This document shows, piece after piece, positions 2,327 through 46,720 of a DNA stretch of 64,000 bases. The DNA comes from a virus (taxonomy: Duplodnaviria; Caudoviricetes): positions 1 through 64,000 of IMG/VR virus record IMGVR_UViG_3300032218_002851, one strand, 5' to 3'. Within the stretch, counting starts at the first letter, position 1; the number at the start of each line of letters is the position of its first letter. The notes below the pieces were generated by a model. That model worked only from the letters and a program-made list of their open reading frames with translations. It made no database searches and was not told where the DNA came from. The position numbers were made by a program, and so were the translations under genes.

Positions 2327-2872
2327 TCAGAGTCTTTGGCTGAGTACTTCCCAATTCATGATTTTCCAAAGGCTATCAATATATTTTCCTTTGTTAGAAC
2401 CATAGTCACGTTGATATGCATGTTCCCACATGTCTATCAACAAGACTATATCAGTTCGCTTTTCATGATTTGGTATTGTTTTGATACTGCCTGAGCGAGA
2501 TAGATATATCCACGCCGAGCCTTGCACCTTAAGTGCATGTTCGCGCATTTCTTTCTTGAAATCAGTGATGTTATCAAACTTATTTTCAATAAACTCTAGA
2601 ATACGACCTTGTGGTCGTTTATTGGATGCATGATCTTTGAATTGGGTAAACCATAGTTCATGCAGAAACGCACCAGCTTCATTAAAGCGGTCGTCGCCCT
2701 CATCGTTATTAAATCGATCTACATAGCCTTTGTACAAGGTACCATAGTGAAAGTCTATGGTAGATGCACTCATGCTCGGAGCAAGTTGATTTCGACTGTA
2801 GGGCAGTTTGACTTGCGTCAGTTTTCGACTGCTTTTAGCTTCTATGAGATTGATAGTATCACGTAGTTCCAT
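2327..2872 (-). CDS. sod: Fe/Mn superoxide dismutase (compact)
   Basis: LPY..LAP.MS..T..FH, FLH.LWF and DMWEHAY motifs retain four metal ligands. Confidence 0.9.
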   Translation of the reverse strand: MELRDTINLIEAKSSRKLTQVKLPYSRNQLAPSMSASTIDFHYGTLYKGYVDRFNNDEGDDRFNEAGAFLHELWFTQFKDHASNKRPQGRILEFIENKFDNITDFKKEMREHALKVQGSAWIYLSRSGSIKTIPNHEKRTDIVLLIDMWEHAYQRDYGSNKGKYIDSLWKIMNWEVLSQRL

Positions 2873-2876
2873 GATA

Positions 2877-3095
2877 CTATTTATTACGATATACGATCCT
2901 TCCCCTATTTAGATCATAAGGACTCATTTCGATTTCAACGGAGTCGCCTTGAGTCAGACGAATATTATTTTGACGTAATTTACCACTGATAGAGGCAGTA
3001 ATAATATGATTGTTTTCTAGCTTGACCCTAAAGACAGTATTTGGCAATACATCGTCAATAGTTCCGGTCAGCTTGATAGCTTCTTCTTTAGGCAC
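2877..3095 (-). CDS. infA: Translation initiation factor IF-1
   Basis: [28 protein letters not shown]...[30 protein letters not shown], the IF-1 signature. Confidence 0.95.
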
Positions 3096-3174
3096 AGATT
3101 TTTAGTTTCCTTCTTATTAAATTATATTCTTGAAAGTGATTATAGCAACCTATTTATATCAATATATAGGATTA

Positions 3175-3627
3175 TTACAATGCGTTGTCTTGAGTGTGTT
3201 GAAATTTTTTGACACGTTCGGAACGTATTTTAGCAACATCTTCTACCGCTTGGCGTAGAGTTTCTGCATAGTTTAATGCTTGTTGCTGATTTAACAATGT
3301 AGTTGATTCATATGTAACATAGCCTTTGAACCAAACATGACAGGTGATTCGTGCACGATTGTAAATGCCGTTAATCCATCTTGCAATAGCATACCATTGT
3401 TTTTCTAAAAATCTGTTCTTGATGTCACGGTGTTCATCCACAATACTTTGCCAGTATGAGGTAGTTTGTCGAGTAGAGATTTGTACAGTAATTGCATATT
3501 CATCTGCTTCTACATAAACGTTTTGGATACAGTCATTATTGCCACATTCGCATGATACTTTGTATGACTTGCAATCGCCAAAATCTTGGCTTTTAAGAAT
3601 ACCAGTTGCTGGTTGTTGCGCTTCCAT
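3175..3627 (-). CDS. Hypothetical phage protein
   Basis: ORF track; fits operon packing. Confidence 0.6.
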   Translation of the reverse strand: MEAQQPATGILKSQDFGDCKSYKVSCECGNNDCIQNVYVEADEYAITVQISTRQTTSYWQSIVDEHRDIKNRFLEKQWYAIARWINGIYNRARITCHVWFKGYVTYESTTLLNQQQALNYAETLRQAVEDVAKIRSERVKKFQHTQDNAL

Positions 3628-3971
3628 TAAATCTCCAATTTTTTTAAATTTTCGTGGTTAATATCTAGTACTTCAAAGTTAGGACCTACCATCATCTTGT
3701 TGTTGCCAATCAAGAAGACATGACGGGGGAATCTAGCTCTCAAGGTTTCTCTGATCTCAATATAGGTTTTACCCTGGGCAAGAAACTTCTCATTTTCGCT
3801 ATCAAACCAGTAATAGCAATCTCCATATTGCTCTTGTCTAACTGGACGAATAAACTCAGCAATATGTTTTTTAAAATTTTTGTCATTTTGGTTTTTCTTG
3901 ACCAGCAATAAACCATAGATAGTGTTCAATAGTAAAAACATCGTAATAAAATAGAAAATAAAATCTGCCAT
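3627..3971 (-). CDS. Hypothetical protein with N-terminal TM helix
   Basis: Hydrophobic N-terminus; start/stop overlap with neighbour. Confidence 0.6.
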   Translation of the reverse strand: MADFIFYFITMFLLLNTIYGLLLVKKNQNDKNFKKHIAEFIRPVRQEQYGDCYYWFDSENEKFLAQGKTYIEIRETLRARFPRHVFLIGNNKMMVGPNFEVLDINHENLKKLEI

Positions 3972-3979
3972 AAAGATAT

Positions 3980-4747
3980 TTAAACCTCAAATACAAAACT
4001 AGGATCAAAGCTAGCTGCCAGCGGTTCGTAGCGATGATATCCACGAGGATTACTCAACACTCGTGTGTTGCCAACTAGATAATCACTTCGACTGTGCATA
4101 TGTCCATGAACCCAGTAGGTAATTTCTGGATGCGAGTAAATCAAATTTTCTAAATCAGAAAAATAAGCACCATTACCGTGGAAATCGTCTTTGTAATATT
4201 CAGATACACTTTGAATACTGGGTGCATGATGCGTGATTACTACTATTGGTCCAGTATGTGCTGTTTTAGCAAGTTTGTTTAGGGTGTTCTTGATATATTC
4301 TCGACTTGCCTTGTGTGTTTCGATAGTATTTGATGGTGTTAAAGGAAGGCTACCGTGTGCATAATTGATCAAACGATAATCATTCATCATTTTCGAGATG
4401 TCAAACATGCTGACTGGATTTTCCTTATTCATGTCAGTCCATAGTGTCGCGCCAATGAACAACACATCATCTATTTTTACTGATTCATTTTCCAGTATGA
4501 TAACATTATCCGGCATTCGCTGTTTGATAAAATCATATGTTTCATTGAATGCGCCCAGATAATGCTCGTGATTACCCATTACATACAACACATGATTGTA
4601 TTTGGCGCACTCTTCAGTGAAGAACTTAATGTGTCGGTTTAAATTCACTGCTTCACAAATGTCGCCAGCCAAGATCAAAATATCTCCGCCTGGCAATTCA
4701 ATATTACCAAACTCCAAATGTAAATCTGAGCAAAGAGAAATTTTCAT
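3980..4747 (-). CDS. Calcineurin-like metallophosphoesterase
   Basis: SDLHLE, LAGDI, GNHEHY, THHAP and HGHMH motifs; start adjusted to MKISLCSD. Confidence 0.9.
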   Translation of the reverse strand: MKISLCSDLHLEFGNIELPGGDILILAGDICEAVNLNRHIKFFTEECAKYNHVLYVMGNHEHYLGAFNETYDFIKQRMPDNVIILENESVKIDDVLFIGATLWTDMNKENPVSMFDISKMMNDYRLINYAHGSLPLTPSNTIETHKASREYIKNTLNKLAKTAHTGPIVVITHHAPSIQSVSEYYKDDFHGNGAYFSDLENLIYSHPEITYWVHGHMHSRSDYLVGNTRVLSNPRGYHRYEPLAASFDPSFVFEV

Positions 4748-4748
4748 T

Positions 4749-5405
4749 TTAATCCCACAGGTCTCCGTAATATTTACCAAACAAACGTAGCCCATTGTCA
4801 ATACGTGACTGATGGGCTTTCATGCCATCCCAATCAGTTTCCAGCGTGTGATTTGGGCCATATATCATTCGAGATAGTTTTTCGCTCTTGCCAGTGAGCG
4901 GATCTGTATATTCTTCGTCTGTGGATTCAAATTGATAATCAGCCTCACCTGTGTGATATTTTTGTTGCCAATCACAATCTGGCTGCAGTTGTTCAAAAGC
5001 CCAAATCATCTCGTCAAGAACCCAATCCCAACGAAGATGAAAGTTATCATCAGTATCCCATTCATTTTCCTTGGCTGGCGCACTGGTGCTGCGTAGTTCT
5101 TGTGGTACATCGTCATCATCTACAAATCCGCTGCCGTGCTTGGTATTTTGTAATTGCTTTAGCATTGGCAATACAATCAGGGCCAATGTATCATTCATGT
5201 TCCATGTATCATACTTGTCGATACGAACTCGGATTCGACGCTGCTTTAACCCATCTAGTTTAGCGCAAACAGTACTAACCCAAGTCTCGCTAAGCCATTT
5301 TCCAATCTTGTCACATCGATCTTTGCTAACCCCAACTTTCTGTAATAAATCAGCCAGCTGATACGGTCCAATCCAGTTTTTATATGGGCCGATATAGATT
5401 TTCAT
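4749..5405 (-). CDS. Conserved phage hypothetical protein
   Basis: MKIYIGPY...DTWNM..TLA.I..PML.QL...WDWVLDEMIWAFE...FGKYY.DLWD pattern. Confidence 0.7.
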   Translation of the reverse strand: MKIYIGPYKNWIGPYQLADLLQKVGVSKDRCDKIGKWLSETWVSTVCAKLDGLKQRRIRVRIDKYDTWNMNDTLALIVLPMLKQLQNTKHGSGFVDDDDVPQELRSTSAPAKENEWDTDDNFHLRWDWVLDEMIWAFEQLQPDCDWQQKYHTGEADYQFESTDEEYTDPLTGKSEKLSRMIYGPNHTLETDWDGMKAHQSRIDNGLRLFGKYYGDLWD

Positions 5406-5647
5406 TTGGTGTCCTTTAAAACGTTCCAGGTTTTTTCTTGCGTATAAAGATAGAATTCATATTTAGAACGCATAAAGTCATAAAATGAGCGCAGTGCAAA
5501 TACGGTTGAAATTATTCCAATGAAAACTGCAGTAATTATGCTGTAGGGCTTGGGTACAGCAACGATCACAACAATGCTGATGATAAAACAAAGCAGCGGC
5601 GCTATTTCCCGAGCTACGAACTTCCAAAATTTGACATCGATATTCAT
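5402..5647 (-). CDS. Small 2-TM membrane protein
   Basis: Two hydrophobic segments; follows sigma70 promoter. Confidence 0.6.
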   Translation of the reverse strand: MNIDVKFWKFVAREIAPLLCFIISIVVIVAVPKPYSIITAVFIGIISTVFALRSFYDFMRSKYEFYLYTQEKTWNVLKDTK

Positions 5648-5676
5648 TAATATTGCCTATTATTTAGATTGATTCT

Positions 5677-5706
5677 AGTATACACTATCTGTATATATTT
5701 TGTCAA
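5677..5706 (-). promoter_or_regulatory. sigma70-type early promoter
   Basis: TTGACA-18-TATACT on minus strand. Confidence 0.75.
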
Positions 5707-6026
5707 GACTTTTTGGTAAGCTCTGTCACAGTAATATATCGCTGGTAAGCTGTTTCTAGCTCTTGCCTAGCTTGTTCTGCAGCTGCATGTTCTGATGGTG
5801 GCCATGAGCCGTCACGGAGGTTTTGGTACCAAGATTTAGGATTTTCTGGCGTCCAAAAGACTACATTTTGTGTTCCTTCATTGTTTTTCCATTGTTGGAA
5901 TGCACTATGATAGCGGCAGTATTTAATTTCATTGCCACCTGTCATCATAGAACCAACCATGCACAGATAATAATCATCTTTTTTAGGTAAATTCTCAGTA
6001 ACATGATACCACGCTGTTAAGATCAT
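5703..6026 (-). CDS. Hypothetical protein
   Basis: Start adjusted to MILTAW (ATGA overlap with upstream stop). Confidence 0.55.
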   Translation of the reverse strand: MILTAWYHVTENLPKKDDYYLCMVGSMMTGGNEIKYCRYHSAFQQWKNNEGTQNVVFWTPENPKSWYQNLRDGSWPPSEHAAAEQARQELETAYQRYITVTELTKKS

Positions 6027-18559: not shown

Positions 18560-18890
18560 AGTGATGGTTGTATTGAGTAATAAGGAACAACCATCAAGAA
18601 CCCCAATTACAATCAGGCTGCTAAGGCCATCTCGTAATGGTCGTCATTAGATGCGACATTTATATTTTTTGCTTGATTTACGGTCATCGCCTACCGAGTT
18701 GTCCATATCAGTATCTTACCCTGTCGAATCTAGTCACCCCCATCAAAAGCATACTTACGAAACATTTATTGATTGCTGAACCAGTGTGTTTCGACAGCAT
18801 CATATTTACAATATGCTTTTGGTGGAGGTGGGGAGAATCGCACTCCCGTCCAGAATACCTTCCCTTTACTTCATACAACTATAAAACCAT
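18560..18890 (-). ncRNA. ssrA: Circularly permuted (two-piece) tmRNA; tag ASNDDHYEMALAA
   Basis: Minus order: T-arm GGGAG-TGCGATT-CTCCC plus CACCTCCACCA (ends 18820); intervening hairpin; 5' end GGGGGTGACTAGATTCGAC (starts 18741) with G3-U70; tag 18654..18613. Outer limits approximate. Confidence 0.9.
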
Positions 18891-18902
18891 ATTTAGTTAC
18901 TA

Positions 18903-19151
18903 TTACGCATCTATCGGTTTGAAAGTCGTAGAATTAATTCTACAAATAACCTTTTTCATCACAATCTTACCGTGCAAGTGATCGTAAGTATAAAAGTCAT
19001 CAATTATATTTTTAATCGATACAGAAAGATCTGGATTGATTACCGTTACAAAGTGCTGTACTTGCATTTCAGCAACCTTAGGTTCTGCAACCTTCGGAGT
19101 TGCGTAAGTGGGGTGTACCTGCTGAATCGAATATCTCGGATCTATATGCAT
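18903..19151 (-). CDS. Hypothetical protein
   Basis: ORF track. Confidence 0.4.
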   Translation of the reverse strand: MHIDPRYSIQQVHPTYATPKVAEPKVAEMQVQHFVTVINPDLSVSIKNIIDDFYTYDHLHGKIVMKKVICRINSTTFKPIDA

Positions 19152-22080: not shown

Positions 22081-22109
22081 ATATTAACAGGTTGAACCAG
22101 CGTTGTCAA
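22081..22109 (-). promoter_or_regulatory. sigma70-type early promoter
   Basis: aacggTTGACA-17-TAATAT. Confidence 0.75.
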
Positions 22110-30750: not shown

Positions 30751-31560
30751 TTAGTCTGAGCTTGACCCACATTTCTGGCGCTTAAGATTAGTCAGCTGAC
30801 CATAATCAACAGGCCATTCTTTGCCCGGCTGAAGCTCTATTGCGCCTTCGGGAAATGCAAACCGAACGCCAGCTGCTTGTTCGATTTGGGCAATGGGTAA
30901 TCTGAACTTAGTAAGGTCTGTGCCTAACTTTTCTGCATGAGGAAATAACCAGCCTGCGACTTGTTTTGTTTGGTCATCTATTACAATCTTATAGAACGCA
31001 TGAGGAACTACAACATGATTTTTTCCAATCTGCTTGTCTTGGGCATTGTAGATACCACCTACATAAACAGTAAAGCTCTGATTTAACTGAACAGTCCATC
31101 CACGGACACTGGTTTCTAGTAACTTCCATATTGCCCTATTAAATCCAGGCAGCTGCGGACTCATATTAGTCATGAGAAATGATTCATATTCCACTTGTTG
31201 ATCCCAGCTTAGATCTCCGTCTGGACTCATATGACCTTTATCATAGCCAGTACCTGCATAATCGTCTGCAACAGCGCCGCCAGGTACACTTTGGTCAGCC
31301 ACAAAAGCATTAGTGCGTGCAACACAGCCTAGTGCATTTTGTGGACGTAGAGAATAAGTTACGAACTTAGGTAGTTTTGCTGCAGCGTCATATCCCACCA
31401 GATATGCTTGACGACAAATCGGAGCAACATCTGCTGTTTGTGGAAATCCATAAGGACTGTGTACCTGACATTCCTGTAAAGGCAAAGGCTGACGTTGAGT
31501 CCATGCGTGAACTGTTATTGTGCAAAACAATAACATAATAGAAACTACTAGATTTTTCAT
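30751..31560 (-). CDS. DNA/RNA non-specific endonuclease (NucA-type) with signal peptide
   Basis: YDKGHMSP, ESFLMTNMSPQ..FNR.IW..LE and VPHAFYKIV; start adjusted to MKNLV. Confidence 0.9.
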   Translation of the reverse strand: MKNLVVSIMLLFCTITVHAWTQRQPLPLQECQVHSPYGFPQTADVAPICRQAYLVGYDAAAKLPKFVTYSLRPQNALGCVARTNAFVADQSVPGGAVADDYAGTGYDKGHMSPDGDLSWDQQVEYESFLMTNMSPQLPGFNRAIWKLLETSVRGWTVQLNQSFTVYVGGIYNAQDKQIGKNHVVVPHAFYKIVIDDQTKQVAGWLFPHAEKLGTDLTKFRLPIAQIEQAAGVRFAFPEGAIELQPGKEWPVDYGQLTNLKRQKCGSSSD

Positions 31561-31594
31561 ACTTGATTCTCCAATATAAAGTATCAAGTATTTA
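31559..31594 (-). promoter_or_regulatory. Late promoter TAAATA overlapping 5' arm of start-codon hairpin
   Basis: atacttgat / atcaagtat 9-bp arms; TAAATA at 31589-31594. Confidence 0.5.
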
Positions 31595-31618: not shown

Positions 31619-32110
31619 CTAACATTTAGAGAGGTCCTGGTATTTGAACCATTTATGTGCGTCGTGCACTGTTTTTAAATATAATCCGTTCATGGCTAAT
31701 CGCTCACGCCATGCAAAAAAACTAGGTCCATGTCCGTTGCCGCCAGTGTATATATCTCTCCCGTGCAGCTGACGATGTTCCCAACGATATATATCCCAAA
31801 CAAATTGGTGAACCATTTCATGCGCTAGTATGTTAATAAGCCATTGTTGGCAGAACCACTTGTCAGATAATCGCATCCAGCAATAGCTGCCAGTCTGTTG
31901 TAGATCATTTTCCCAATGACATACACCCCAAACCTTATGAATGCGACCGACAAATATAACAGGAGATTTTAGCTGACCGTCAAAACAGTTTTGGTTAATC
32001 AACTCGTAATAATAATCGATTTCGTCAAGAGATGGACGATATTGCAGTTTGCGTTGATAGGTCTTGCTGGGCAGTGGCTGTTGCATTAGCCTCTTGATAA
32101 GGTCAGACAT
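31619..32110 (-). CDS. SprT-like zinc metalloprotease
   Basis: YYELINQNCFDG.L...ILAHEMVHQ...GHGPSF. Confidence 0.85.
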   Translation of the reverse strand: MSDLIKRLMQQPLPSKTYQRKLQYRPSLDEIDYYYELINQNCFDGQLKSPVIFVGRIHKVWGVCHWENDLQQTGSYCWMRLSDKWFCQQWLINILAHEMVHQFVWDIYRWEHRQLHGRDIYTGGNGHGPSFFAWRERLAMNGLYLKTVHDAHKWFKYQDLSKC

Positions 32111-33911: not shown

Positions 33912-33940
33912 ATATTAACAGATGAATGGTTGTTTGTCAA
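33912..33940 (-). promoter_or_regulatory. sigma70-type early promoter
   Basis: aacggTTGACA-17-TAATAT. Confidence 0.75.
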
Positions 33941-34179: not shown

Positions 34180-34208
34180 ATATTACACGACCGAGCCAAA
34201 TCTGTCAA
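34180..34208 (-). promoter_or_regulatory. sigma70-type early promoter
   Basis: TTGACA-17-TAATAT. Confidence 0.75.
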
Positions 34209-34239: not shown

Positions 34240-34357
34240 GCAGCATCAATGTGCTGCTTGGTAAGCTGCCTTTCAAGTATTTTTCGCTAAGTGTTTGATA
34301 TTGTTAGAAAAAGTGTCAGGACTGAGCCTGACACTTTTGTGTCTAAGTTGTTGATTT
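34240..34357. repeat. Fixed-spacing intergenic element, copy 3 of 3
   Basis: GCAGCATCAATGTGCTGC (ATCAATG at 34245), CAGGACTGA (34317, +72), TAAGTTGTTGATTT (34344, +99). Confidence 0.85.
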
Positions 34358-34359
34358 CT

Positions 34360-34575
34360 CTAGAGTTTTTCGCCGCAATGTTGACAACGTTTAGTGTTTT
34401 CATCTTTAATTGCTAGAATCAAATGCTTGAGTTCTTTGCATTCCTCAAGCATTCTTTTCAGATGCTGTTTCTTTCTATCTTTTTTAGGTTTCTTAATTTC
34501 TTCTTTAATCAACCCTTTGATCTTTTGAAACTGAGATTCCCAAACAGGAAGATAAGTTGGCAGCAACTTTTTCAT
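34360..34575 (-). CDS. Small basic protein with C-terminal CxHC
   Basis: ORF track. Confidence 0.55.
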   Translation of the reverse strand: MKKLLPTYLPVWESQFQKIKGLIKEEIKKPKKDRKKQHLKRMLEECKELKHLILAIKDENTKRCQHCGEKL

Positions 34576-34576
34576 A

Positions 34577-35524
34577 TTACTTAACCCATTCTTGTGCTTT
34601 TTGAGCTACTTTAGCGGGTAATGGAACATATCCATCTTTGACTACAATTTCTTGTCCAGTCTTTGATAGCACCATCTTCATAAATTCCTTTTCAAGAGGA
34701 GCAAGAGATTCATTAGGATGCTTGTTCACATAAACATACAAGTATCGAGCTAAAGGATACTTACCGGAAATAGCATTTTCTGGTGTTGGTTCAATAGCCT
34801 CTCCACCGTCTTTACGAGAAAGAGGAAGAGCTTTAACGCTTGCAGTCTTATAACCAATACCAGAGTACCCAATACCGTTCAATGATTTAGTAACACCTTG
34901 TACCACAGAAGCAGATCCGGGCTGCTCATTTACGTTACTCTTATAGTCGCCTTTACAAAGAGCAAACTCTTTAAAGTAACCGTATGTGCCTGATACTGAA
35001 TTACGACCAAACATCTGAATGCGCTGATTGCCAAGATCACCAGTTACTCCTAGACCGCTCCACTGGCTAATGTCGTTATCGTGACCGCAAGCTCTTGTTG
35101 CAGAATAGATTGCATCAACTTGTGGGATAGAGATAGATGTGATCGGATTATCCTTATGAACAAAGACGGCTAGAGCATCAATTGCTACTGGAATAGCCGT
35201 TGGCTTATATCCATACTTGCCTTCAAATGCCTCTACTTCTTCCGACTTCATCATACGACTCATCGGACCTAGTGTTGCCGTGCCTTCAGTTAGAGCAGGA
35301 GGAGCCGTAGCTGAACCTGCTGCTTGAATCTGTACTGTGACATTAGGATAGAGACGTTTAAATTCTTCTGCCCAAAGTGACATAAGATTTGCAAGAGTAT
35401 CAGACCCAACTGATGATAGCGTACCCGATACACCTTCTACTTTTTCGTAGGGAACAATCTCCGCATCGATTGCTGATGCGGAGAAAGAGATTGTGGCAAG
35501 AATACTAAGTAATAGTTTTTTCAT
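34577..35524 (-). CDS. pstS: Phosphate ABC transporter substrate-binding protein
   Basis: Signal peptide; [46 protein letters not shown] and YPLARYLY. Confidence 0.95.
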
Positions 35525-35533
35525 AAATGCTCC

Positions 35534-36940
35534 TTACCAGAATACTGCCATACGAGTAACGATTGCTGATGGTTCAGAACCAGCATACTTACCACCTTCT
35601 ACATCAAGAACCTTGACATAGTTAGTCTGGAAGCGAACGTTCTGTACTGGAAACCAATTAACGCCAACTGATAGATTCTTTTCACGACCACCAGTGATTA
35701 AATCGCTATTCAAGTCTGTATCCGAGAATCGACCAACAAGTTCCCAAGCACCCCATCCACCTTTACCAACAAGAGACTGTGGCTTGACTGAATCAAAGAT
35801 ACCTTCTTGAAACTTATATGGACGAGATTCACCAGTTAGGAACCAGCCAGCAGAGACATAATAACCTTGGAAGTAAGGATTGCCAGCAGCAGTATTCACT
35901 TGCATACCAAGATATTCACTTTGTAGAGTAAATGGTCCCTGTACTACAACAAACTCACCGTTCCAGCGAAGTAGATGATCAGCACCAAATTTACCAGTAT
36001 CAATTAGGCGAGTAGATGTTTCATTGACTTCCATTCTTTCGCGAAGCTGAACGTTGTTACCATCCTTAAATCCACGATAAGAGACACCAGAACCTAGATG
36101 AAGTACATGACCACCATCATGCCAAGGTGCCCAAGTTACACGTCCAGTAGCAGCATAACCATCATTGAAGTCACGAGGATTGGTTTCATCTGCACCCTTA
36201 TCGGAAATGGTTTCTTGCTGGCGAGTACCAAAGATACCCCCGCTATAGGTAAAGTGATCTGTCCAAGTAGTTAGCTTGATACCGGGATTACGTTCACCAA
36301 CATAGTTAGCAAGAGCATTGACTGGCATTGCACGTTCTACAAATAGACCATTGTTTGAGCTATTGATTAGATCAAAGCTAAATGGTTCGTGTGACTGACC
36401 AATCTTGACACTTGTAGGATGTGCTACTGCATCAATACCGGGAAGCTTACCAACATATTCAACATAGGCATCCTTTAGACCTTCAATGCCTTTGTCTGAT
36501 TCACGGAAATCGTATTCAGCTTTGAACTTCCAATTAGTATTCAGTGTACCAGCAACACCAAGTCTTAGACGACGAAACTGACCTGCATCTGCCTGATTGA
36601 ATCCACCGTCTTTATCAAAGAAGGCAGTATCATAATGAATACGACCAATTGTGCGCCAAGCAAAATCTCCGGGCTTGTCTTTTAGTTCAAACTTACCGGG
36701 AGTAAGACCGGGAGTACCTAGCTGAGCAAGAGACTGTTCGACCTTTTTACCAACTTCTGCGCCAGCAGCATTGTTAGTTTCTTCATCAGCTTGAGCGGCA
36801 GACTTAAGTTCCTCATACGATTTGGCGTCAAGGGTTCCTCTAGTCTTTAGAGTATCCAGTAGCTGGATCATCGCATCGTTTGCAGCAAATGCTGGCGCGC
36901 TTAATAGGCACGACAGTAATACTATTGTGGATTTTCTCAT
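35534..36940 (-). CDS. oprP: Phosphate-selective porin OprO/OprP family
   Basis: Signal peptide; GRIHYD, RRLRLG..G, FVERA, WFLTGESR.Y, WELVGRFS.DL and GVNW; C-terminal aromatic W. Confidence 0.9.
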   Translation of the reverse strand: MRKSTIVLLSCLLSAPAFAANDAMIQLLDTLKTRGTLDAKSYEELKSAAQADEETNNAAGAEVGKKVEQSLAQLGTPGLTPGKFELKDKPGDFAWRTIGRIHYDTAFFDKDGGFNQADAGQFRRLRLGVAGTLNTNWKFKAEYDFRESDKGIEGLKDAYVEYVGKLPGIDAVAHPTSVKIGQSHEPFSFDLINSSNNGLFVERAMPVNALANYVGERNPGIKLTTWTDHFTYSGGIFGTRQQETISDKGADETNPRDFNDGYAATGRVTWAPWHDGGHVLHLGSGVSYRGFKDGNNVQLRERMEVNETSTRLIDTGKFGADHLLRWNGEFVVVQGPFTLQSEYLGMQVNTAAGNPYFQGYYVSAGWFLTGESRPYKFQEGIFDSVKPQSLVGKGGWGAWELVGRFSDTDLNSDLITGGREKNLSVGVNWFPVQNVRFQTNYVKVLDVEGGKYAGSEPSAIVTRMAVFW

Positions 36941-36979
36941 AAATTCTCCTTAGTTTAATTTAGAATATATCGTGAATAT

Positions 36980-37019
36980 TTAATAATACTTGTACAGTGT
37001 TATTAAAATAGTGTGACAG
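36980..37019 (-). promoter_or_regulatory. Candidate Pho box upstream of oprP-pstS
   Basis: Minus strand CTGTCAC-ACTA-TTTTAAT-AACA-CTGTACA; half-sites on an 11/22-bp pitch, middle one degenerate. Confidence 0.45.
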
Positions 37020-37031
37020 CGGTCGCTTAGA

Positions 37032-40697: not shown

Positions 40698-40726
40698 ATA
40701 TTACACAACGACGAACCGTTTGTCAA
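40698..40726 (-). promoter_or_regulatory. sigma70-type early promoter
   Basis: aacggTTGACAaacggtt...-17-TAATAT. Confidence 0.8.
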
Positions 40727-41120: not shown

Positions 41121-41327
41121 TCAAATATTTTGGTCATCATAAGAGTCAAAAAGAACGCTTGGATCTTGTAGCCCGATCAATGATCCGCCTGGACCTTTGC
41201 GAAGAATACCTTTTTCTAGCCCGTGTTGTTTGATATTTTTCCATTCTTCTTCTAGAAGGTTGGTGAAATCTTCTTCGGAACCTAAAAATTCTTCAGGCCA
41301 TGGTTTGTTCTTTATTTTATTTTTCAT
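41121..41327 (-). CDS. Small hypothetical protein
   Basis: ORF track. Confidence 0.45.
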   Translation of the reverse strand: MKNKIKNKPWPEEFLGSEEDFTNLLEEEWKNIKQHGLEKGILRKGPGGSLIGLQDPSVLFDSYDDQNI

Positions 41328-42324
41328 TTGCTACACACTCCGCGTGTTCAATAAATTGTCGCGCTGAATACCGCCAAGTCCAGCGTTCAGCAGTATACCT
41401 AACTCGTCGTCTATCTATATTAGCGCATTGGTCTAAGGCTGTTTGCAAGTCCGTGTTTATCCATCCGTTTATTCCGTTTTCAATTACTTCCAGCGGCCCT
41501 GGTTCTGGATATGCAGCTACTGGAGTGCCAGAAGCAATGGCTTCTAGCAGCACAATCCCAAACGTATCAGATTTACTGGGAAACACAAATGCATCAGCAT
41601 TGGCATACCATTTAGCCAATGCTGCACCTTCTTGATGACCCGGGAAAATAACATCTGGATATTTTCGCTTTAACGAAGCGAGATATGGGCCATCACCTAC
41701 CAAAACTTTTTGGGAATGATTCAATCGACAAAAATCATCCAAGCCTTTTTCCTTGCTAGCCCTACTCACGCACAAAATATAGCCACCAGTTGTTTGGTCT
41801 CTTTTATCCAAGGAAAATAACTTTCCATCCACACCTCTAGTCCATATAGAAGTGTTGTACATTCCGTGCTGGTGCAAACACTGTGCTAAACCTACAGTAG
41901 GACAAAGAATCGCTTGGCTATTTCGATGAAACCAACGAAAGTAAGGATATGTCAAGTGTGTCGGTATTCCCCAACGACGCTTAATAAGATCAGGAAACAG
42001 TGTATGAAAACCTGTGGTAAAAGGTATGGTGTTGCGCTTACAAAATCGCCGAGTCATGAGTCCGATAGGACCTTCGGTAGCTATGTGTATGTTCGTGTCG
42101 CTATCAACCCTTGATGAAAGTTCATTGGTTACTGCGGATAAATTACAAACATATTCGATTTCAGGATATGCTTTTAATATTCTACGTTTGAAAGCCGGCA
42201 GATACGGATGAATCACATCACAAGTCACACCTAACTCTGAAAAATAAGGCAAAATATTTTGATATGAGCGAATCACGCCATTTACTTGGGGAATCCAGGC
42301 ATCAGTAGCTATCAATATTTTCAT
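41317..42324 (-). CDS. agt: GT4 glycosyltransferase, Agt-like (glycolipid synthase)
   Basis: MKILIATDAWIPQVNGV, HIATEGPIG, WTRGVD and FPSKSDTFGIVLLEA.ASGTPVAAYP. Confidence 0.8.
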   Translation of the reverse strand: MKILIATDAWIPQVNGVIRSYQNILPYFSELGVTCDVIHPYLPAFKRRILKAYPEIEYVCNLSAVTNELSSRVDSDTNIHIATEGPIGLMTRRFCKRNTIPFTTGFHTLFPDLIKRRWGIPTHLTYPYFRWFHRNSQAILCPTVGLAQCLHQHGMYNTSIWTRGVDGKLFSLDKRDQTTGGYILCVSRASKEKGLDDFCRLNHSQKVLVGDGPYLASLKRKYPDVIFPGHQEGAALAKWYANADAFVFPSKSDTFGIVLLEAIASGTPVAAYPEPGPLEVIENGINGWINTDLQTALDQCANIDRRRVRYTAERWTWRYSARQFIEHAECVANEK

Positions 42325-43070
42325 GAACTCATGCTACTCCATTCGATAATACGCCAGTTGCCATTAAAATCTTCAACCAGTGCTGTGCAACTTTCCACAA
42401 AATCGCCGTCGTTCATGTATTCAACGCCATCAATCTGTTTGATTTCTGCATGGTGAATGTGTCCACAAATAATACCGTCATAACCTTTGCGACGACAATA
42501 CTCAGCCATGTTTTTCTCATAGCTTACAATATGACCTACTGCAGTTTTTACAGCCAACTTCAAATACTTGCTTAGACTCCAATAGCCAAATCCAAATTTG
42601 CGACGAATCCAGTTGAACTGCGTGTTTAGTCCTAAAATCATTTCATAAAGGTAATCTCCTAAGTAACTAATCCAACGATGATAATTCAAGATGCCATCAA
42701 ACATGTCGCCATGAATCAACAAATATCGTCGGCCATTAAGGGCAGTATATTCATAACGATTGTGGATCTTGATCAATCCAAAACTTAAGTCTAGTCCTAG
42801 AGTGGCTCGTAAAAATTCATCATGATTTCCTACGATATAATGAACTTTGGTTCCTTTTTTAGCGTGACTTAGAATCTTGCGAACTACATTGGTATGAGTT
42901 TGATCCCATCGCCATTTCTTCTGCTGTATCTTCCATCCGTCGATGATATCTCCGATCAAGAATAGATTTTCTGCTTGATTGTGTTTGAGAAAATCTAAAA
43001 GCAATAAGGACTTGCAATCCTTACTGCCTAAGTGCAGATCGCTGATACAAATAGTCTTATATCTGTTCAT
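42321..43070 (-). CDS. plcP: PlcP-like phospholipase C (LpxH-like metallophosphoesterase)
   Basis: ISDLHLG, GDIIDGW, GNHDE, IHGD.FD, GFGYWSLSKYLK, CGHIHH and YMNDGD.VESCTALVE; coupled to GT4 gene. Confidence 0.8.
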   Translation of the reverse strand: MNRYKTICISDLHLGSKDCKSLLLLDFLKHNQAENLFLIGDIIDGWKIQQKKWRWDQTHTNVVRKILSHAKKGTKVHYIVGNHDEFLRATLGLDLSFGLIKIHNRYEYTALNGRRYLLIHGDMFDGILNYHRWISYLGDYLYEMILGLNTQFNWIRRKFGFGYWSLSKYLKLAVKTAVGHIVSYEKNMAEYCRRKGYDGIICGHIHHAEIKQIDGVEYMNDGDFVESCTALVEDFNGNWRIIEWSSMSS

Positions 43071-45337: not shown

Positions 45338-45703
45338 ATGGAAAATATTTTAGGTGTCATTTTTTCGTTGGCAATATTATTGTTAGCTTATATTTTGTAT
45401 AGCTTTATTGCCAATCGTCTAACACAAGAACAATCAATCACCACACCAACAGAATCTGTAGTAACAGATGAGATACTTGAAGTATCTCAGCTTGAGACTG
45501 AAGTAAAACCAGCAGAAGAAGTTGTAGCTGAGTCTGTTGTAGAGAAACCCAAAGAAATTCTAGTTGTAAAGGCTGCCAAGCCTAAGAAGACTAAGGTAAT
45601 TGAACCTAAGAAGGAAAAAACTACCAAGACTTCCAAAGCACCTGTCACTAAAGCAAAACAAACAGCCAATGCTAAAAGCAAAAAGAAATCAGACAATACC
45701 TAA
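45338..45703 (+). CDS. Membrane-anchored protein with Lys/Ala-rich tail
   Basis: AGGAG RBS, TAAATA upstream on plus strand, N-terminal TM. Confidence 0.6.
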   Translation: MENILGVIFSLAILLLAYILYSFIANRLTQEQSITTPTESVVTDEILEVSQLETEVKPAEEVVAESVVEKPKEILVVKAAKPKKTKVIEPKKEKTTKTSKAPVTKAKQTANAKSKKKSDNT

Positions 45704-46720
45704 TTGTTCTGCACGCCTAGCTAGTTCTGCACTAGCTAGGTTCTTGCACTTACTTTCGGCTTGAATGTCAAACTCTGGCAAAAAACTCAAAGCCCAATCG
45801 TTTACTGCAGTGTTCCAATAGAAATCTGAATGCGCTCGCAGTTTGCTTTTACTAAAGCCATTGTTTAACAGAATTGTGTGGTCAGGCATCACATTTGTCT
45901 CATGATTTACCAGTACATCTTCACGACTTACGCTGTAATGCATGGCAGGACGTACACCACGCCAGCTGTCTAGCACACGCTTAACTCGATTGTCATCGGG
46001 TTGAATGTATTCACCTTCTCGAATCCAATTATGATGAATATCTAGCACAATAGGCAATAGATCAGACAGTGACAAACATTCTTCTAGTCCGTGACTCATT
46101 TCTTCATTTTCAATAGTGATGCAGTTGCGAGCCTCGGGCGAGAGTCTGGCATATGCTGTGCGAATACCTTCAGCACCTGCTCGGCCTGCAATATGCACGT
46201 TGATCTTAAAGTCTTGAAATGTCTTGCCATAGCCCATCCACCGAACCATGTTAGCGTGATATTCAAAATCTTCGATGCTGCGTTCTACAATTGCTGGTGT
46301 TTCGGATGCCAGCACTACAAATTGTCCAGGGTGAAAACTAAGACGTACATCATTAACGCGAGCGATCTCACCAATTTCAGCAAAACCATGCTCACAATGA
46401 GCAATTACATCTGCACGTTGCCAGAAATATCGCCAGTCTGGATGCGTGTACATTGGCAGAAGATCACTGCCGATACGCATCATACGAAGATGCGACGGAT
46501 TCTCGCCGACTAGTTTTACTAGCTTAAGAGTAACCGTGATATTTTCGGTCATTAAATTCCATAGCTTTTGTTCAGCAATGTCTCGTTTTTGGCGAGACAA
46601 CCAAGCTACGGTAGTTGAGCCAGTATTCAGTCCTTCCTTAGATTGAATACCTTTTTTAGGATGGCGTTCTACAAATTTGCAGCAGAAGCCGATTCGAGGA
46701 ATGCGTTTTAGTGTAGTCAT
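45689..46720 (-). CDS. uvsE: UV damage endonuclease
   Basis: RIGFCCK, MMRIGSD, RLSFHPGQF.VL.S, IENEE, VLDIHH, RPAMHYS and RAHSD. Confidence 0.9.
   Translation of the reverse strand: MTTLKRIPRIGFCCKFVERHPKKGIQSKEGLNTGSTTVAWLSRQKRDIAEQKLWNLMTENITVTLKLVKLVGENPSHLRMMRIGSDLLPMYTHPDWRYFWQRADVIAHCEHGFAEIGEIARVNDVRLSFHPGQFVVLASETPAIVERSIEDFEYHANMVRWMGYGKTFQDFKINVHIAGRAGAEGIRTAYARLSPEARNCITIENEEMSHGLEECLSLSDLLPIVLDIHHNWIREGEYIQPDDNRVKRVLDSWRGVRPAMHYSVSREDVLVNHETNVMPDHTILLNNGFSKSKLRAHSDFYWNTAVNDWALSFLPEFDIQAESKCKNLASAELARRAEQLGIV

Follow-up and report, generated by a model that had tools for sequence, protein, structure and literature searches.

The textbook phosphate auxiliary metabolic gene (AMG) of phages, pstS, acts in the periplasm only. 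Phage-encoded outer-membrane porins that are inserted in the host envelope are known from lambdoid phages, where Lc of PA-2 and NmpC of DLP12 belong to the OmpC/OmpF/PhoE general-porin family, are carried by temperate phages and are associated with lysogenic conversion. The PstS protein of cyanophage P-SSM2 is reported to be abundant in infected cells and to bind phosphate with high affinity, and infection raises the phosphate uptake of the host (10.1101/2021.07.20.453049). Freshwater amoC-phages were described in June 2026 as phages of 155-338 kb with low GC and were assigned to Nitrosomonadaceae hosts; oprP is present in all but one of them and was used for host prediction, and pstS is not mentioned in the main text or in the supplements covered here (bioRxiv 10.64898/2026.06.18.733297). 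This preprint is the only place in the literature searched where a phage-borne phosphate-selective porin was found mentioned, and the only porin match among 50,697 GenBank phage records was 27% identical and lay on an 8.5-kb fecal contig. Here we describe a porin gene of the OprP/OprO family coupled to a pstS gene in a 64,000-nucleotide stretch (the window), which comprises positions 1 to 64,000 of the IMG/VR virus record IMGVR_UViG_3300032218_002851.

A sequence-only reading of the window had proposed a phage oprP-pstS pair at positions 34577-36940. Both open reading frames (ORFs) were found at exactly these coordinates, both matched the profiles of their families, and the record is viral with phage genes on both sides of the pair. 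The porin gene (35534..36940, minus strand) codes for 468 aa and is followed by pstS (34577..35524, minus strand), which codes for 315 aa. Read from the sequence, the spacer between them is 9 nt long (35525..35533, minus strand); the porin stop codon TAA overlaps the AAGGAG ribosome-binding site of pstS, and no terminator was found in the 9-nt junction. We consider it probable that the genes form a host-derived auxiliary-metabolic cassette that became fixed in a lineage of large freshwater phages and serves phosphate uptake during infection. The gene identities, the fold of the porin, the anatomy of the operon, the residence in a phage, the bacterial origin and the purifying selection are the observations on which this reading is built.

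The porin matched Pfam PF07396 (Porin_O_P) with an E value of 8.7e-66 and a score of 223.1 bits (cut-off 20.9), and the match covers residues 99-444, which correspond to positions 5-344 of the 370 in the profile. A profile of the porin family built from 44 relatives aligned over the whole barrel with Pseudomonas aeruginosa OprP (2O4V) at an E value of 2e-67. When an AlphaFold2 model of the protein (pLDDT 85.2) was compared with solved structures by Foldseek, the best matches were 2O4V, 4RJW and 4RJX (E about 1e-27, TM score 0.76-0.81), with 2O4V at the top (TM score 0.81, E 1.8e-27, root-mean-square deviation 3.0 Å) and general porins next in the list at an E value of about 5e-12. The translation shows a Sec-type signal peptide (...APAFA/AND) and a C-terminus that ends in VFW; a helical N-terminal extension spans approximately residues 19-74 and the OprP-like beta-barrel residues 76-468. 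The protein is placed in Porin_O_P as an OprP-like member and not as an orthologue of OprP or OprO.

PstS scored 279.7 bits against the NCBIfam PstS family TIGR02136 (curated cut-off 206.6), with residues 1-302 aligned to profile positions 1-295 of 295, and it also matched Pfam PF12849 (E 7.6e-36). Its similarity to the solved P. aeruginosa PstS 4OMB (E 1.3e-142, about 70% identity) extends over residues 14-310, i.e., 297 residues, and includes two conserved stretches of 17 and 11 residues common to both proteins. A Sec-type signal peptide (...SASA/IDA) was read from the translation. Judged by these matches, the phage protein is a bona fide high-affinity phosphate-binding protein of the Pseudomonas type.

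A third gene belongs to the unit. The start codon of orf71 (34360..34575, minus strand) overlaps the pstS stop codon (TAATATG), and this 71-aa basic phage ORF of unknown function accompanies pstS in related phages, with copies 83-90% identical downstream of pstS in contigs L092 and L093. The orf71 product matched no Pfam family, and all of its closest ESM Atlas clusters are hypothetical proteins of viruses. Beyond orf71 lies an intrinsic terminator (34308..34334, minus strand) with the stem GUGUCAGG/CCUGACAC followed by a U-run, which was called on fold energy and a shuffle test (-19 kcal/mol, z-score -4.3, with 0 of 200 shuffles equally stable). Since two exact TTGACA-N17-TAATAT promoters (34208-34180 and 33940-33912) stand directly past it, the hairpin was taken as a true boundary between transcription units. 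On the minus strand of the window this pattern occurs four times, where 0.09 occurrences were expected (22081-22109, 33912-33940, 34180-34208 and 40698-40726), and all four sites have TG one base 5' of the second hexamer (TGTTAATAT or TGTGTAATAT); they are probably sigma-70-type promoters of the phage. On the other side of the unit, the AT-rich intergenic region 5' of the porin gene (91 nt, 36941..37031) contains no consensus sigma-70 promoter on the minus strand, and TATTAAATA is present there once, a count not above chance. The stretch from 39602 to 36900 yielded no terminator call, so read-through from upstream promoter-like sites, e.g. 38966-38938, may occur, and the transcription unit may start upstream of 36940. 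The proposal in the sequence-only reading that the porin gene and pstS are co-transcribed thus agrees with a pair built as one unit, which also takes in orf71 and may start further upstream.

An alternative is that the two genes are bacterial DNA misjoined to the phage contig, or binned with it, and the clear bacterial homologues of both (61-78% identity) speak for it. This explanation is highly improbable, because the two genes differ from their bacterial counterparts in composition, lie in the middle of the contig and share their strand with the phage genes that flank them, form phage-only clades in both trees and recur in other contigs. The GC content of the porin and pstS genes is 42-44%, close to that of the phage (40.5%) and far from that of host loci (59-68%), and at third codon positions their GC fraction is 0.29, whereas the nearest bacterial orthologues reach 0.72-0.77. 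The ratio of nonsynonymous to synonymous substitution rates (dN/dS) between phage copies is 0.04-0.12 for both genes. The independent metagenome contig L099 carries the same cassette at 96% nucleotide identity, and two IMG/VR contigs of another sample carry at their ends a 90% identical porin (L002) and a 92% identical PstS (L093); all three are low-GC contigs. Further porin/PstS pairs (P0004/P0131, P0005/P0149 and P0243/P0146) may be coupled in the same way, judged by the equal lengths of their contigs. The source record has 89,857 bases at an estimated completeness of 25%, which translates into a genome of roughly 300-360 kb. Nearly all ORFs of the window are on one strand, and PHROG families on both sides of the cassette include nucleases, tail proteins, ribonucleotide reductase, DnaB helicase, primase and many phage-only unknowns. 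Host contamination is ruled out for practical purposes by the base composition of the genes, the selection on them, their flanks and their recurrence in independent assemblies, and the possibility raised with the original proposal that the region is host DNA was therefore dismissed. The cassette is an AMG module with viral genes on both sides, a cellular origin and a distinct viral clade under purifying selection.

Genes around the cassette were also inspected. Flanking genes on the minus strand code for a DNA/RNA non-specific endonuclease (Endonuclease_NS), a SprT-like protein and a homologue of the UV-endonuclease UvdE (30751-31587, 31619-32110 and 45689-46720). In the remainder of the record, class Ia ribonucleotide reductase subunits, a DnaB-like helicase and a primase are encoded at positions 69335-73418 (L097 5335-9418) and 84777-87185 (L098 14778-17186) of the record (G000), a gene set in keeping with a large lytic phage that supplies its own nucleotides.

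Database searches separated the phage-type proteins from their bacterial relatives by a gap. The phage-type porins (467-468 aa) are 84-93% identical and the phage-type PstS proteins (312-317 aa) 86-100% identical, and the best bacterial matches follow at 54-68% for the porin and 72-78% for PstS. The best genome matches of both proteins were found in one set of uncultured freshwater gammaproteobacterial metagenome-assembled genomes (MAGs) from Lake Baikal and other lake bins. Tree building placed the phage PstS proteins in a monophyletic clade (99) whose sister group is the PstS proteins of MAGs G001-G004; the phage porin clade (99) is nested among porins of the same MAG group. The comparison of phylogeny with that of the host, which had been suggested as a check, thus returned distinct phage clades next to or within gammaproteobacterial MAG sequences, and the trees fit a transfer from bacterium to phage. 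In the donor MAGs, the two genes are unlinked. There, pstS is the first gene in a run ordered pstS-pstC-pstA-pstB-phoU, of which the two permeases and the regulator were the genes covered by the Pfam check, and a PhoB-like response regulator adjoins; the porin gene, often as a tandem pair, is on a separate contig amid unrelated genes. Joining the two genes in one direction with 9 nt between them is, therefore, a phage arrangement. Tandem porins in three bacterial loci (L009 6001-9183, L010 5980-9168 and L011) are about 60% identical to each other, and the Pho box is located upstream of the first copy only.

The control of these genes was compared in bacteria and phage. In 113.6 kb of host loci, eight copies of the strict Pho box GTCAY-N6-GTCAY were found, all of them correctly stranded and just upstream of a target, which is pstS in three loci and the first porin gene in five (L007-L010 and L017). 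With Pho boxes in front of both genes, the bacterial orthologues very probably belong to the Pho regulon, as OprP and OprO do. The strict pattern is absent across the entire 89.9-kb phage record. In the region 5' of the porin gene there is a perfect CTGTCAC half-site at 37019-37013, with CTGTACA 22 bp downstream, and these elements would suit a cassette that host PhoB controls through a Pho box, as in the case of cyanophage pstS, and that is expressed only in phosphate-starved hosts. Such control is improbable. Against a weight matrix built from five host boxes, the half-site scored 4.8 bits and ranked 317th in the phage record, compared with 21-24 bits for host boxes, and the phage lacks the two-repeat pattern seen at all host porin and pstS promoters. 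Furthermore, L002 and L092 do not share the region 5' of the cassette; in both, the genes directly adjoin phage ORFs on their upstream side. Taken together, the missing strict box, the weak half-site and the unconserved upstream region do not support control by host PhoB, and a canonical host Pho box upstream of the cassette was ruled out.

Under the reading of a phosphate-uptake cassette, the porin gene, pstS and orf71 would be transcribed during infection as one mRNA that ends at the 34308-34334 hairpin. Because the host-type Pho box is missing, expression would follow the phage programme instead of host PhoB. Both the porin and PstS would be exported via Sec; the beta-barrel assembly machinery (BAM) of the host would insert the porin in the outer membrane, where it would form an anion channel similar to OprP and lined by arginines, and in the periplasm PstS would bind orthophosphate and pass it to the host PstCAB importer. 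As a net effect, the infected cell would capture phosphate faster under phosphorus limitation and supply the synthesis of a very large phage genome. The selectivity of the channel, the docking of phage PstS on host PstCA, the feeding of host PstCAB by the phage pair and the benefit to the phage are the parts of this pathway that we infer.

Several observations weigh against this reading. The first set concerns the pore. The two central phosphate sites of OprP involve D94, Y62, S124, S125, K121, K126, R34 and R133 (PMC5877670). Residue equivalences were taken from the profile alignment to 2O4V, and conservation from the family alignment of 44 sequences. Four of these eight residues differ in the phage porin (D94 is K156, Y62 is R126, K121 is L191 and K126 is N196), the arginine ladder is mostly gone (R220 is kept as R300, R218 corresponds to Q298 and R226 to N306), and OprP R242 sits in a loop that has no counterpart. 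A second point is that no pstC, pstA or pstB and no BPD_transp_1 permease were found in the 89.9-kb record, which represents about 25% of the genome. Thirdly, the phage relatives L092 and L100 have pstS and orf71 behind other phage ORFs, without the porin gene. Finally, the transfer-messenger RNA (tmRNA) of the phage is of the permuted beta type, while the donor MAGs carry standard tmRNA.

The pore residues raise the possibility that the protein is a real OprP-fold channel with a substrate other than orthophosphate, such as another oxyanion, a small polar solute or, as in OprO, pyrophosphate or polyphosphate; the porin and PstS would then be less tightly linked than in a two-step phosphate path. 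Besides the divergence at half of the central sites, which includes the replacement of K121 by leucine, the positions that separate OprP from OprO (62 and 114, according to the title of entry 4RJX) are R126 and H184 in the phage porin and fit neither protein, the latter taking the place of OprP Y114. Database labels of "phosphate-selective porin" can also be wrong, as in the case of ExtI (PMC5877670). We nevertheless regard a different substrate as unlikely. Bacterial orthologues with the same pore residues stand behind canonical Pho boxes, like pstS in the same genomes, the phage joins its porin gene in an operon with pstS, and the replacements are mostly basic (R126, K156 and H184), so that a strongly anion-attracting constriction is retained. 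The remainder of the OprP constriction is also in place. OprP R34, R59, R60, R133, S124 and S125 are retained as R100, R123, R124, R203, S194 and S195, of which R100 and R123 are invariant across the family alignment and the other four are found in at least 90% of the sequences; K74 and K109 are likewise retained, and R302 and R311 are basic residues near the ladder positions. The divergent residues K156, R126, L191 and N196 are found in all five phage porins. Among 13 close bacterial porins, N196 and R126 are present in all, L191 in 12, and position 156 is lysine in nine and arginine in four. Since the phage and nearly all of these bacterial porins have the same pore states, the phage copy preserves the pore of its own clade and is not decaying. 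With the constriction still strongly basic, the porin is likely an anion channel. Orthophosphate selectivity is plausible and is backed by the genomic context and not by residue identity. The phosphate-selective porin of the sequence-only reading was consequently retained in part: the OprP fold and the core arginines agree with it, and half of the central-site residues, K121 among them, do not.

The porin-less relatives bear on a different alternative, in which the porin chiefly remodels the cell surface, through superinfection exclusion or receptor replacement, as lambdoid porins do, and the adjacency of pstS is incidental. Phage porins that alter the porin composition of the host, Lc of PA-2 and NmpC of DLP12, set a precedent for this option, and the presence of the porin in some relatives and its absence from others is in line with it. 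Its probability was nonetheless judged to be very low. The 9-nt coupling to pstS recurs, directly in L099 and apparently in the further pairs, the pore-lining residues are constrained as in bacteria, dN/dS is about 0.1, and no evidence ties the porin to a receptor function. The relatives without the gene do indicate that the porin is dispensable. The PstS of L092 and L100 is 88% identical to that of the window and identical to cluster P0164, which is found on 50 contigs; L092 pstS is preceded by the same ribosome-binding-site context although the porin gene is missing, and the two contigs share 78% downstream synteny with the porin-bearing L099. In the PstS tree, L092 and L100 are nested inside porin-associated sequences, and a loss of the porin in that sublineage is therefore favored. 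Homology between the window and its relatives stops at approximately 36950 and 34360, at both edges of the module, which shows the three genes sitting in different neighborhoods.

The donor MAG group was considered as the host of the phage and was not adopted. The tmRNA types differ, and a close hps (58%) was found in one of five donor MAGs. The phage permuted tmRNA matches the betaproteobacterial two-piece family, whereas the donor MAG tmRNA is RF00023 in L155 (G001), L156 (G010) and L158 (G004). The phage gene is located at 18562-18931 on the minus strand, with the ARAGORN tag VASNDDHYEMALAA, and scored 122.5 bits against tmRNA_permuted and 102.1 bits against beta_tmRNA (cut-off 84) in Rfam. 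The rpoB gene was not found in donor MAGs G002 and G003. An AmoC-family gene is present in three of the five donor MAGs searched. G002, a Lake Baikal MAG with the closest porin and PstS homologues, has a complete copper membrane monooxygenase (CuMMO) operon consisting of AmoC, AMO and Monooxygenase_B (L163, G002:C65:6000-16000, ORFs at 2850-5854, minus strand). In a comparison with the four named genomes that have a full-length copy, the C subunit of the G002 type is about 50% identical to those of Nitrosomonas mobilis, Methylomicrobium, Methylobacter and Methylosinus; at only about 50% identity to AmoC/PmoC, the donor CuMMO represents a divergent monooxygenase lineage.

At 4.4 kb upstream of the porin gene (43070..41317, minus strand), a metallophosphoesterase (Metallophos, 249 aa) is translationally coupled to a glycosyltransferase of the GT4 type (335 aa). 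Phosphoesterases of the donor MAGs are 40-48% identical to the phage enzyme. Only the domains of this pair are confirmed, and if its reading as a PlcP-Agt lipid-remodelling pair is true, the phage carries two separate phosphorus-scavenging modules. A broader proposal can then be made, which we advance tentatively and at slightly less than even confidence. In it, a giant lytic phage equips the outer membrane with a phosphate channel and the periplasm with a phosphate receptor, both its own and both on the phage schedule, as part of a broader phosphorus-scavenging programme to which the PlcP-Agt-like pair also belongs. This would be the first re-engineering of outer-membrane permeability for nutrient uptake by a phage at the level of an operon, built from two host genes that lie apart in the donor lineage. 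Lakes are often phosphorus-limited, and a phage genome of about 300-360 kb is costly in phosphorus. If the cassette acts as proposed, the outer-membrane entry step is also supplied by the phage, viruses can rebuild a whole envelope-spanning uptake route, and outer-membrane permeability joins the host traits that are reprogrammed in infection. Sister phages with and without the porin, together with a porin clade whose constriction is unlike that of OprP at defined residues, provide a natural experiment.

Other viral records with OprP-family matches (L003-L006, 29% identity, and L161-L162) were kept out of the set of phage porins because they look like bacterial flanks. In L004 (7563-16125; IMGVR_UViG_3300042400_000624), the 29% identical Porin_O_P gene lies beside genes for a CHASE2 adenylate cyclase, FecR and CsgG, and this stretch is probably bacterial, either a provirus flank or a misclassification. 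Identity with the amoC-phages was considered and rejected as well: no amoC was found in the 90-kb phage fragment, the phage porin is only about 30% identical to the porins of Nitrosomonas and Nitrosospira, and the C subunit of the donor CuMMO is divergent. The amoC-phages and the phage described here resemble each other in that both are large freshwater phages of low GC and carry a host-derived OprP-family porin, at a similar distance from host homologues (60-76% identity in groups A and B of the amoC-phages; 10.64898/2026.06.18.733297), but the nearest bacterial porins of the present phage belong to Gammaproteobacteria of high GC content that have a divergent CuMMO operon.

The P. aeruginosa proteins OprP and OprO (2O4V and 4RJW) share with the phage porin the Pfam family and the barrel fold, and the bacterial orthologues of the latter are apparently Pho-regulated as well. 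The phage protein is set apart by its low identity (about 24%), its location in a phage genome, an additional helical stretch of about 55 residues at the N-terminus, and a pore in which K121, D94, Y62, K126 and Y114 are replaced by L, K, R, N and H and the outer arginine ladder is partly missing. Lc and NmpC differ from the present case in that neither is an OprP-family channel in an operon with a transporter component. As in cyanophage P-SSM2, the pstS AMG codes for a periplasmic phosphate binder that would be expected to work with host PstCA(B), in keeping with what is reported in that study (10.1101/2021.07.20.453049). Unlike cyanophage pstS, the gene of the window codes for a Pseudomonas-type PstS (TIGR02136, 70% identity to 4OMB), resides in a large phage of a freshwater proteobacterium, has no detected host-type Pho box and is translationally coupled to the gene of an outer-membrane porin. 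Each of the two genes alone is known from phages, and the coupled porin-pstS pair is, as far as known, new among phage phosphate AMGs.

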